Part shown: piece by piece, positions 3,236 to 4,850 of the stretch
How positions within the stretch are numbered: position 1 is the first letter of the stretch
How the letters are laid out: every line of letters starts with the position of its first letter
Source: Eubacteriales bacterium
GTDB taxonomy: Bacteria > Bacillota > Clostridia > Oscillospirales > CAG-272
Direction of reading: 5' to 3'
Assembly (NCBI GenBank): GCA_045631585.1
Contig: JAZQUX010000116.1
Coordinates: forward strand, 1-36,804
Length of the DNA: 36,804 nt
Program-made: the position numbers and the translations under genes
The notes under the pieces: model-generated
Told to the model about the DNA's origin: nothing
Database searches by the model: none
Seen by the model: the letters and a program-made list of their open reading frames with translations, nothing else

Positions 3236-3264
3236 TTGACATACCACAATGATTGTGGTATAAT
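3236..3264 (+). promoter_or_regulatory. Consensus sigmaA promoter P1 with a perfect palindromic operator
   Basis: TTGACA(3236-3241)-17bp-TATAAT(3259-3264) with TG extension; ATACCACAAT-G-ATTGTGGTAT at 3241-3261. Confidence 0.9.
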
Positions 3265-3307: not shown

Positions 3308-3622
3308 ATGACAAAGCAGGACGCAATTAGAGAGATCATCACCCGCGGCAACCATGCCTTCGAAGATAGTGACCTTGTGCCCGAGGTCGGCGAGATTTAC
3401 ATGCTCGAAGAGACTGCCAACACCCCCGTCAGAGTGGTCACGAGTGTTAAGGGTCACATCACTAAAAGCACATACGATTTCTTCCTCAAAGCAACCACCG
3501 GCACCGTCTATCTGTTTAAGGTCACGAAAGCAAATCAGCACAAGTACATGGACTGGGACTACAACACCGTCCGCATCCACACGCACTCCATTGACGGCGA
3601 GCTCCGCTGCATGGCTGACTAA
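3308..3622 (+). CDS. Small orphan protein, 104 aa (candidate anti-defence protein)
   Basis: AAGGAG RBS before ATG 3308; first gene after P1; function inferred from context only. Confidence 0.8.
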   Translation: MTKQDAIREIITRGNHAFEDSDLVPEVGEIYMLEETANTPVRVVTSVKGHITKSTYDFFLKATTGTVYLFKVTKANQHKYMDWDYNTVRIHTHSIDGELRCMAD

Positions 3623-3666
3623 CACATCGAGCGCGGCGGTTAACCGCGCAGAAAGGAATAAAAATC

Positions 3667-3951
3667 ATGAAATTTGGTCTTTTTACTCTGCAAAGCACCG
3701 ATCACCTTGTCCGCTGCATCGACGGCAAGCTGTCCCTGATCGACACCCCGGCATATGTCGAAGGCTCCGCAAAGAGATTCGATTCGTACGTTGACGCCCC
3801 CGAAATCCCGGCAAAGGAATCCGAGCTTGAAATCAAGCTGCGGAACCAAGGTACGCTGCTGACATCCAGCCGCTCCGTTGCCGCAGTCCTCTACGGTGTA
3901 CCGGACGACGTTGAGCTGTACACCGCCGAGGACGGAATGTGCAAGCTGTAA
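3667..3951 (+). CDS. Small acidic orphan protein, 94 aa (candidate anti-defence protein)
   Basis: AAAGGA RBS; second gene of the cassette; function inferred from context only. Confidence 0.8.
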   Translation: MKFGLFTLQSTDHLVRCIDGKLSLIDTPAYVEGSAKRFDSYVDAPEIPAKESELEIKLRNQGTLLTSSRSVAAVLYGVPDDVELYTAEDGMCKL

Positions 3952-3956
3952 ACCCA

Positions 3957-3985
3957 TTGACAATTTAATAAAACTGTGCTATAAT
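3957..3985 (+). promoter_or_regulatory. Consensus sigmaA promoter P2 for the small RNA
   Basis: TTGACA(3957-3962)-17bp-TATAAT(3980-3985) with TG at 3977-3978; expected +1 near 3992. Confidence 0.9.
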
Positions 3986-3991
3986 AACACT

Positions 3992-4020
3992 GTCAGCCGG
4001 AAACGGCTGTGGATTGAAAT
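3992..4020 (+). CRISPR. Solitary type I-C-like CRISPR repeat (not an array)
   Basis: GTCAGCCGGAAACGGCTGTGGATTGAAAT: starts GTC, forms hairpin CAGCCG-GAAA-CGGCTG and ends with the 11-nt I-C handle TGGATTGAAAT. Confidence 0.8.
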
Positions 4021-4055
4021 TATTATTTGAACATATACGGAGACGTATGGCAGAT

Positions 4056-4087
4056 AGCACAGTGATCTATGATTGCTGTGCTTTTTG
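4056..4087 (+). terminator. Intrinsic terminator of the small RNA (probably conditional)
   Basis: AGCACAGTGATC-tat-GATTGCTGTGCT (12 bp with 2 G.U pairs) followed by a T run. Confidence 0.8.
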
Positions 4088-4110
4088 CTTTTGATTGGAG
4101 GTAAAAAATC

Positions 4111-4593
4111 ATGAGAATCATCAAAATATACACCGTGAACGTTTGGAGCGCGAATCATTATCGAGACACCAACTACGAAAATTTCTACAGCCGCGCCGAC
4201 GCTTACCGATATCTGTGCGACTTCGCGCAGGGCTGGAAAGAGTATTCCGATCATGGCTACGACAGCCCTGAAATCATGGATGTCGGCTGGATTTATTGCA
4301 GCCTCGTACCGATCAATGATGGCGTGACACTCCCGGAAGATCCGTCAGAGCTGTTTTCCGATGACAACTTTAATTTGGACGACGGCAGCTTTGTATACCT
4401 TGATCTGCCACCGTACACCGACTTCTGCGTCGAGCATGAGATGCCATACGGCGGAGACAGTTGGACGCTGTATGCAGACGGTCACATCGAGCAGATGTAC
4501 CACGACGGCAGACAATCCAAAACCATGGAAAAATACATCAACGACTGGAAATCGCGTGGATGGGACGGTAAAGTCGAGGAGGTGATCCTGTGA
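4111..4593 (+). CDS. Highly acidic, aromatic-rich orphan protein, 160 aa (candidate Acr or DNA mimic)
   Basis: GGAGGT RBS; by hand count about 30 D+E versus 12 K+R; lies directly upstream of an HTH gene. Confidence 0.85.
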   Translation: MRIIKIYTVNVWSANHYRDTNYENFYSRADAYRYLCDFAQGWKEYSDHGYDSPEIMDVGWIYCSLVPINDGVTLPEDPSELFSDDNFNLDDGSFVYLDLPPYTDFCVEHEMPYGGDSWTLYADGHIEQMYHDGRQSKTMEKYINDWKSRGWDGKVEEVIL

Positions 4594-4784
4594 CCACCAT
4601 GACTTTCCGCGAGCTTCTCTCCGCCTCCGGCATGACCATCCGCCAGTTTGCCGCCTATTTCGACATCCCCGTCCGCACCGTCGAAAGTTGGAGCAGCCAA
4701 AATCCAAACGTCAAAGGCAAGTGCGCACCGTACCTCATTGATCTGCTGCACTTCAAGCTCGTCCATGACGGAATTTTGAAATAA
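4590..4784 (+). CDS. Small XRE-type HTH regulator (Aca-like)
   Basis: FRELLSASGMTIRQFAAYFDIPVRTVESW HTH pattern; GTGA overlap with the upstream gene (alternative ATG at 4599). Confidence 0.85.
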   Translation: MTTMTFRELLSASGMTIRQFAAYFDIPVRTVESWSSQNPNVKGKCAPYLIDLLHFKLVHDGILK

Positions 4785-4818
4785 AAAAACGCACGGCATC
4801 AAAACCGTGCGTCTTTTT
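4783..4818. terminator. Bidirectional intrinsic terminator
   Basis: A run, ACGCACGG-catcaaaa-CCGTGCGT, then a T run; lies between convergent genes. Confidence 0.85.
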
Positions 4819-4850
4819 ATGCATTTTTTAACTTGCCGGCAACTTGCAGA

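Follow-up and report, generated by a model that had tools for sequence, protein, structure and literature searches.

Complementarity between the -10 element of an internal promoter and the terminator of its small RNA suggests a possible, partial promoter-selective antiterminator in a candidate anti-CRISPR operon

The stretch of DNA analyzed here, which we call the window, is the whole of one contig (JAZQUX010000116.1, 36,804 nucleotides (nt)) in the 78% complete genome assembly GCA_045631585.1 of a Eubacteriales bacterium. It carries a candidate anti-CRISPR (CRISPR: short palindromic repeats, clustered and regularly interspaced) operon of a predicted prophage, in which a solitary mimic of a type I-C CRISPR repeat appears to have its own internal promoter, P2, and its own intrinsic terminator, between an upstream promoter, P1, and two downstream genes, orf160 and HTH64. 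We find that ACTGTGCTAT (the left arm, 3973..3982, + strand), which lies within the extended -10 of P2, is the exact reverse complement of ATAGCACAGT (the right arm, 4054..4063, + strand), which consists of the 2 nt before the terminator stem and, of the stem's 12-nt 5′ arm, the first 8. The match is 100% over 10 nt, with 71 nt between the arms, and both the sequence itself and a repeat finder bear out what an earlier reading of the bare letters (the sequence-only reading) had claimed about it. We tentatively favor an explanation, which we place just short of probable, in which the left arm acts as a partial promoter-selective antiterminator. Its sharpest form, in which the -10 of an internal promoter serves, as RNA, as the antiterminator for its own small RNA's terminator and promoter choice alone decides termination, is quite possible but on balance doubtful.

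The anatomy behind this explanation is as the sequence-only reading described it, with P1 upstream, a P2 -10 overlapping the left arm, a strong terminator, and genes for an acidic protein and a helix-turn-helix (HTH) protein beyond. P2 (3957..3985, + strand) is a perfect internal promoter, TTGACA-17-TATAAT with 12/12 matches and a TGTGC extended -10, and the left arm overlaps the TGTG-C-TAT of this element. The -10 ends at 3985 and a start would be expected about 7 nt downstream, at G3992, which is the first base of the repeat-like RNA; we infer a transcription start near this G. The -10 of P2 is necessarily missing from P2 transcripts, so 3973-3982 is carried by upstream-started RNA alone, and the left arm indeed falls in 40 nt that are present in upstream-started RNA and missing from P2-started RNA. 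At up to one mismatch, the arm 10-mer has two matches in the window, which are the two arms themselves.

The terminator (4056..4094, + strand) has a 12-pair stem with a 3-nt loop (4056-4082) followed by TTTTTGCTTTTG; five of the pairs are G-C, the U-tract reads TTTTTGCTTTT, and the isolated hairpin has a predicted free energy of -15.1 kcal/mol. The small RNA, from G3992 to the terminator U-tract, is expected to be about 95-100 nt long. A consensus scan found no terminator-like site between P1 and P2, and neither the scan nor inspection by eye found a promoter-like site on the + strand between 3985 and 4111. With no promoter between the terminator and orf160, transcription of orf160 and HTH64 must therefore cross the terminator, in keeping with the earlier claim that expression of 4111-4784 depends on doing so. 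Two other ways of reading the terminator region were rejected by eye: a minus-strand promoter at the right arm would have TATCTG as its -10 and no -35, and the terminator 3′ arm, taken as a decayed duplicate of P2, matches a -10 at 2/6 positions and again has no -35.

Under the favored explanation, RNA would start at P2 at about G3992 and the strong terminator would end it as the small RNA, with no barrier other than this terminator separating the upstream promoters from the two genes behind it. RNA from P1, which bears an operator-like palindrome, would carry the P2 -10 sequence, and 3973-3982 would pair with 4054-4063 before the terminator 3′ arm is made. Flanking helices, 3990-3993 with 4050-4053 and 3961-3965 with 4071-4075, would assist. 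This pairing competes with the terminator hairpin, so that read-through should be more frequent among P1 transcripts than among P2 transcripts, as a partial bias rather than an all-or-none switch. The difference in read-through between the two kinds of transcript is thus a model prediction. Over the same bases of the terminator 5′ arm, the left arm makes 10 Watson-Crick pairs, whereas the terminator 3′ arm makes 8 pairs, one of them G-U.

Because the choice to terminate is made while the RNA is still being synthesized, we examined folds of the nascent RNA. When RNA ending at 4063 or 4071 was folded, the antiterminator helix was the minimum-energy fold for 5/5 upstream starts and had a probability of 0.93-0.997 in 7/7 upstream-start contexts. 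For RNA extended to 4082, its probability was 0.99 with the start at 3308 (the full P1 transcript), 0.43 at 3952, 0.31 at 3900, and about 0 at 3973, 3965, 3800 and 3667. When the two states were forced on this same RNA, antiterminator and terminator came within about 1 kcal/mol of each other for starts at 3952, 3960 and 3900, and the terminator was better by about 3-4 kcal/mol for starts at 3800 and 3667. In P2-started RNA the terminator probability is 0.999, as the sequence-only reading would have it for transcripts without the left arm. Its companion claim, that P1 transcripts sequester the terminator arm, fares less evenly: the helix is predicted to form first in nascent RNA, but at 4082 the outcome depends on the 5′ context. 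Likewise, the comparison it had proposed, 3960-4095 against 3992-4095, shows the terminator retained in both at full length, whereas the antiterminator is the minimum-energy fold when the RNA is cut back to 4063 or 4071. These predictions suggest that the helix probably forms first in upstream-started RNA and lowers termination, though only in part.

How unusual such a complement is can be judged against the rest of the genome. For 1065 terminator-like hairpins across the whole genome, we sought the longest exact complement of the 5′ arm (plus 2 flanking bases) in the 10-130 nt upstream, and this terminator is the only one with a complement of at least 10 nt. Behind it come an unrelated hairpin, whose complement is 9 nt long, and two more at 8 nt; a second 9-nt entry is this terminator again in another register. 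Shuffling the upstream sequence 40 times per hairpin gave a complement of at least 10 nt at a rate of 2.1e-4 per hairpin, a chance that would be lower still if the complement were confined to the 40 nt from the orf94 stop to the P2 start.

A number of findings weigh against an antiterminator. Many of them speak for coincidence, in which the left arm is a generic extended -10, the right arm is part of an ordinary stem, and orf160 and HTH64 are reached through a leaky terminator from both P1 and P2; we regard this too as a serious candidate, though below an even chance. Terminators leak, and read-through needs no special device. In the coincidence view, constitutive leakage from P2 would supply basal HTH protein in the lysogen, an arrangement that would work equally well. 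The chance rate per hairpin amounts to about 0.22 terminators with a complement of at least 10 nt per genome, and complements of at least 8 nt, at 0.6% per hairpin, were expected about 6.3 times and observed 5 times, so that the genome-wide distribution matches the shuffles. Perfect 10-nt inverted repeats with a spacing of 15-120 nt number 8 in the window against 4.7 +/- 2.9 in 200 first-order Markov resamples, a count within chance. A bare inverted repeat is thus unremarkable here, and it is the position that is unusual, with one copy in the terminator 5′ arm and the other in a stretch absent from P2-started RNA.

Promoter sequence accounts for much of the left arm. The element TGTGNTATAAT is standard in this genome, with 111 copies, 22 of them with C at the variable N position, and the generic extended -10 supplies eight of the left arm's ten bases, namely TGTG, TAT and the common C. 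Near-identical P2-like promoters precede tRNA (transfer RNA) genes and other, unrelated genes in other genomes of the family. The leading AC of the left arm is not promoter consensus and precedes the motif in only 2 of the 22 cases. Because the left arm is mostly fixed by the promoter, any selection for complementarity would have acted mostly on the terminator arm. Against coincidence, the match runs 2 nt past the terminator stem, three left-arm bases are not fixed by promoter consensus, and as a pairing partner for the 5′ arm the left arm surpasses the terminator 3′ arm; the antiterminator helix is, moreover, the predicted first fold in every upstream context.

The folding predictions also have their adverse side. 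Full-length minimum-energy folds contain the terminator with or without the left arm, as coincidence would have it, and for RNA ending at 4082 the terminator is favored at equilibrium in 6/7 contexts (terminator probability 0.57-0.998). This sensitivity to 5′ context shows that the fold prediction is not robust. We defined an energy gap as the best alternative with the terminator 3′ arm held unpaired minus the terminator state; here it is 3.7 kcal/mol in the terminator's favor. The median for hairpins in the genome is 13.4 kcal/mol, this terminator ranks 55th of 949, and among 568 hairpins with stems of at least 10 pairs only 3 have a gap this small, a rarity that counts in favor of the antiterminator. 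Twelve of the top-ranked hairpins and the one other case with a 9-nt complement include no Rfam attenuator and only a tRNA, however, so this ranking is not validated as a guide to attenuators. Finally, the direct-path barrier from antiterminator to terminator is low, 5.3 kcal/mol for starts at 3952 and 3900 and 9.3 kcal/mol for a start at 3667, and three loop-proximal terminator pairs are not part of the antiterminator helix and can serve as a starting point for strand displacement. The barrier would thus be a weak kinetic trap, and the terminator could displace the helix quickly.

The pairing might also be real and serve the RNA in some other way, as a site for a double-strand-specific RNase or by hiding or exposing the repeat for Cas5c, thereby separating cistrons or changing stability and leaving termination as it is. 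We consider this improbable. The helix is only 10 bp long, which is short for RNase III, and such a role leaves the overlap with the terminator arm unexplained. In its favor, the long-range helix, as predicted, has the entire repeat and spacer-like part between its strands, and RNAs of the Racr type can come from operon transcripts: in the report on Racrs, 5′ RACE placed RacrIC1 on a bicistronic RNA with acrIC5 (PMC10651486). The further idea that Cas5c cleavage of the long transcript couples protein output to host Cas is pure speculation.

Relatives of the locus were sought as a source of covariation between the arms, with protein-guided scans (orf160 or its alignment against viral, genome and metagenome contigs, and HTH64 against viral contigs) and with repeat patterns. 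No homologous locus suited to this came up in the viral, genome or metagenome contig collections or in 400 genomes of the same bacterial family, which makes this the weakest side of the case for the antiterminator. In the phage collection, a DNA search and a tblastn search with orf160 each found nothing, and tblastn with HTH64 yielded no more than two distant relatives, 37-41% identical and set in another context. A search with orf94 gave one relative at 26% identity, with no repeat behind it. The repeat-pattern scans returned no viral locus; two metagenome loci and one genome locus did match, all of them unrelated high-G+C elements. A metagenome contig (L049) carries the same hairpin-plus-handle sequence, CAGCCGGAAACGGCTGTGGATTGAAAC, in an unrelated high-G+C element at 3600-3860, followed by two more degenerate repeat-like units between small genes; L048 has one copy right after a gene stop codon. 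The 400 family genomes yielded only generic promoter matches and short matches at chance level.

At the protein level, orf160 has four homologues with 64-98% identity and a conserved N-terminus and HTH64 has seven, all from metagenome assemblies. Small parts of the stretch are carried by 20 sequencing runs from 14 studies, none of which is on record as RNA, and contigs from four of the DNA runs hold mosaic relatives among the matches listed. In one metagenome contig the match is limited to 3974-4091 (2 substitutions, 2 gaps), and what precedes it is unlike the window; in another the match spans 3599-4091 and gives way to unlike sequence after that. Given these unlike flanks around the matching block, the segment from the extended -10 through the terminator behaves as a cassette. 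That 3974-4091 recurs in metagenome contigs with different surroundings also fits coincidence, as a module that recombines into other contexts. In a third relative, from run X4, a second repeat is inserted, with a joint from 4039 back to 4004 and 33 nt between the repeats, making a two-repeat mini-array. Its second repeat has a 7-bp stem and an ACAC loop, against 6 bp and GAAA in the window, and this relative is without 4137-4517 of orf160.

The family genomes also hold three stand-alone, promoter-proximal solitary I-C-like repeats with terminators, in which complementarity between promoter and terminator arm is at most 4 nt. We count this in favor of an antiterminator, although the comparison is with weak analogues, as none of the three has a co-directional gene behind the repeat and each is instead followed by a long convergent frame. 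The three loci (L104, G064:C45 111-260; L121, G296:C14; and L101, G046:C1) share an upstream TATAAT, a spacer-like stretch, a terminator and a convergent frame of 439-470 residues. They may be host crRNA (CRISPR RNA)-like regulators or other Racr-type genes.

P1 (3236..3264, + strand) is a sigma-70-type promoter, TTGACA-17-TATAAT with 12/12 matches and a TG. Like P2, it resembles the generic strong promoters of the bacterial family, such as those upstream of tRNA genes, and a BLAST search of the locus against the 400 family genomes gave many matches, to the two promoter regions only, preceding tRNA genes and assorted others. Inside the P1 spacer and -10, the repeat finder marks a perfect 10+10 palindrome, ATACCACAAT g ATTGTGGTAT (3241..3261). 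It is present in a single copy in the window, where none is expected by chance, and has no second copy at up to three mismatches. This palindrome is likely a repressor operator. Two distant HTH64 relatives (L128 and L129) have TACACA/TGTGTA-type palindromes just downstream of their own promoters.

The resemblance of the arms to this palindrome raises another explanation, that they are DNA half-sites for the HTH repressor, which would bind P2 and terminator DNA by looping or as a roadblock. We regard this as highly improbable. It is true that ATAGCACAGT / ACTGTGCTAT resemble the P1 ATACCACAAT / ATTGTGGTAT at 8/10 positions and that TACACA-type palindromes stand at the promoters of distant HTH relatives, but the promoter consensus TGTG..TAT accounts for seven of the eight shared positions, the arms are separated by 71 bp rather than the 1 bp in P1, and the full P1 palindrome recurs nowhere else in the window even with three mismatches allowed.

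Returning to the promoter-selective antiterminator, its place in the operon would follow from HTH64. If HTH64 is the repressor of the P1 palindrome, P1 transcripts must reach its gene, which would close an autoregulatory loop; a terminator that stops P2 transcripts tightly and lets P1 transcripts pass would keep that loop clean. The palindromes at the promoters of the two distant relatives lend the proposed loop some support.

The predicted small RNA itself begins with a part that resembles CRISPR repeats. The solitary type I-C repeat mimic, GTCAGCCGGAAACGGCTGTGGATTGAAAT (3992..4020, + strand), is 29 nt long, with a hairpin at 3994-4009 (6 bp, GAAA loop, -10.2 kcal/mol) and an 11-nt handle, and its 3′ end reads GTGGATTGAAAT. 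It is followed by a spacer-like stretch of about 33 nt (4021..4053, + strand), which contains a small hairpin at 4035-4048. A pattern search of the 400 family genomes for repeats beginning GTC(A/G/C), with a G+C-rich hairpin and the end GTGGATTGAAAT, identified true arrays, and those in G262, G136, G325, G341 and G009 share the GTCA 5′ end, the stem-loop and the GTGGATTGAAAT 3′ end with the mimic. A Cas8c/Csd1 gene lies on the same contig as the array in 5/5 genomes checked, and it is because of this linkage that we assign the mimic to type I-C. The mimic differs from the family array repeats in its stem sequence and in length, 29 nt against 32-33 nt. In its own genome it is a single copy at up to three mismatches, and its handle motif is nowhere clustered. 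Searches of this genome, in an assembly that is 78% complete, turned up no gene for Csd1 or Cas5d. The mimic matches no Rfam family; no Rfam family reaches its gathering score anywhere in the window, and within 3940-4110 at E <= 10 there are only spurious matches, to the terminator hairpin. By its sequence, the element thus appears to be a solitary I-C repeat mimic that comes with a promoter, a spacer-like stretch and a terminator of its own.

Within the spacer-like stretch, 4030-4048 is a 19-nt exact match to the 9-nt leader and first 10 nt of tRNA-Ser(CGA) genes in several genomes of the family (L070, L072, L073 and L074; 95% in others). We do not take it for a crRNA-like target, given that it is situated away from the end proximal to the protospacer-adjacent motif (PAM) and that an E-value of about 0.005 per genome, across 400 genomes, amounts to a chance-level match, which recurs because its target is conserved. 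In one of these loci (L073, G098:C39, about 1430-2000), we observed three tandem units of about 199 nt, each starting like the tRNA-Ser(CGA) leader and 5′ end. ARAGORN and Rfam call a tRNA in the last unit only; the two before it diverge and match no Rfam family at gathering score.

The surroundings are those of a phage. A serine integrase gene lies at 174-1748, and searches of Pfam and PHROGs identified genes for an endolysin and a tail-type protein on the opposite strand, so the region would seem to be the integrase-proximal accessory part of a prophage. A perfect 10-nt inverted repeat (45-54 / 168-177, 113 nt apart) stands just upstream of the integrase start and overlaps it. The operon runs from P1 with its operator-like palindrome through orf104, orf94, P2, the I-C repeat mimic, the terminator, orf160 and HTH64 to a second terminator. 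The small protein of orf104 (3308..3622, + strand) has an isoelectric point (pI) of 5.9 and that of orf94 (3667..3951, + strand) is acidic, with a pI of 4.7. Inside the 3′ end of orf94, just before P2, is a 16-nt inverted repeat (3886-3933; GTCCTCTACGGTGTAC / GTACACCGCCGAGGAC), 88% complementary with 16 nt between its arms and no U-tract after it. Downstream of the small-RNA terminator, orf160 with its GGAGG ribosome-binding site (4097..4593, + strand; open reading frame 4111-4593) encodes an acidic protein of pI 4.3. HTH64 (4590..4784, + strand) encodes a small basic, putative helix-turn-helix protein of 64 residues and pI 9.0, with a GTG start that overlaps the orf160 stop. The operon-end terminator (4789..4820, + strand; stem-loop 4789-4812) was found by both the consensus scan and the repeat finder.

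Searches of Pfam, PHROGs and NCBIfam gave no match for orf104, orf94 or orf160. The predicted structure of orf160 has a mean predicted local distance difference test score of 42, too poor for a fold search, and a sequence search of the PDB with orf160 found nothing meaningful. HTH64 has a weak match to Pfam HTH_23 (E 0.0055, 16.9 bits against a cut-off of 24.6) and a weak match to PHROG 4779, ‘transcriptional regulator’ (E 0.0033), and two of its seven homologues bear the source-given name ‘DNA-binding transcriptional regulator YiaG’. The RNA and protein functions that we propose for the locus are read from features of this kind.

Several known systems resemble parts of this arrangement. In classical attenuation, as in trp and pyr leaders, T-boxes and riboswitches, mutually exclusive helices are set against each other and a ribosome, protein, tRNA or ligand decides between them. 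Here, as there, an upstream segment can pair with the terminator 5′ arm and exclude the terminator hairpin. Unlike those systems, the deciding factor here would be the promoter used, and the antiterminator arm would be the -10 of an internal promoter, which that promoter leaves untranscribed. In the open-access literature, we found no title or abstract opening that suggests an internal promoter encoding an antiterminator arm. In acr operons, Aca autorepressors typically combine a small HTH gene at the operon end with a palindrome in the promoter, and one of them, Aca2, is reported to bind both RNA and DNA. The present operon is alike in that a small putative HTH gene ends a series of small acidic proteins and a palindrome sits in the operon's promoter, and unlike in that HTH64 matches no named Aca family in Pfam, PHROGs or NCBIfam and would bind P1 only by inference.

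Solitary repeat units, or Racrs, were described by Camara-Wilpert et al. (2023), and that paper includes RacrIC1, of type I-C, in an operon with acrIC5 (PMC10651486). Both there and here, a single CRISPR-repeat-like sequence on a mobile element follows immediately on a predicted promoter and has small candidate anti-CRISPR genes for neighbors; the present locus differs in having its own consensus promoter and a strong mid-operon terminator with two genes beyond it, and the word ‘terminator’ does not occur in the main text of the paper (PMC10651486). Cracrs, as described, comprise a repeat-like part, a spacer-like part and a rho-independent terminator, and the spacer-like part matches the host cas or creT promoter beside a PAM, with at least 9 PAM-proximal pairs (bioRxiv 10.1101/2024.10.29.618823). 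The mimic shares this three-part layout of repeat mimic, spacer-like stretch and intrinsic terminator (bioRxiv 10.1101/2024.10.29.618823). It differs in that its only recurrent match is the tRNA-Ser leader, which came from a general BLAST search of 3986-4100 against the 400 family genomes, no PAM-anchored search having been made. By its layout, we suggest that the locus belongs to the Racr/Cracr group.

If the complementarity is a coincidence, the locus would still offer a clear case of a type I-C repeat mimic that has a promoter and a terminator to itself, in a candidate acr-aca operon of a prophage from a gut Firmicute. If the left arm does act as an antiterminator, the proposed control would be a form of transcription attenuation set by promoter choice: one terminator would be strong for the transcripts of the small RNA and weak for those of the operon, without a protein, ligand or ribosome as sensor, and could offer synthetic biology a simple promoter-selective terminator. 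It would let a small-RNA gene that is constitutively expressed be nested very compactly within an operon under regulation. In this way, a CRISPR-mimic RNA made constitutively could reside inside a repressor-controlled anti-CRISPR operon without uncoupling its autoregulation, which would be relevant to the way in which phages bring RNA-based and protein-based anti-CRISPR functions into step.

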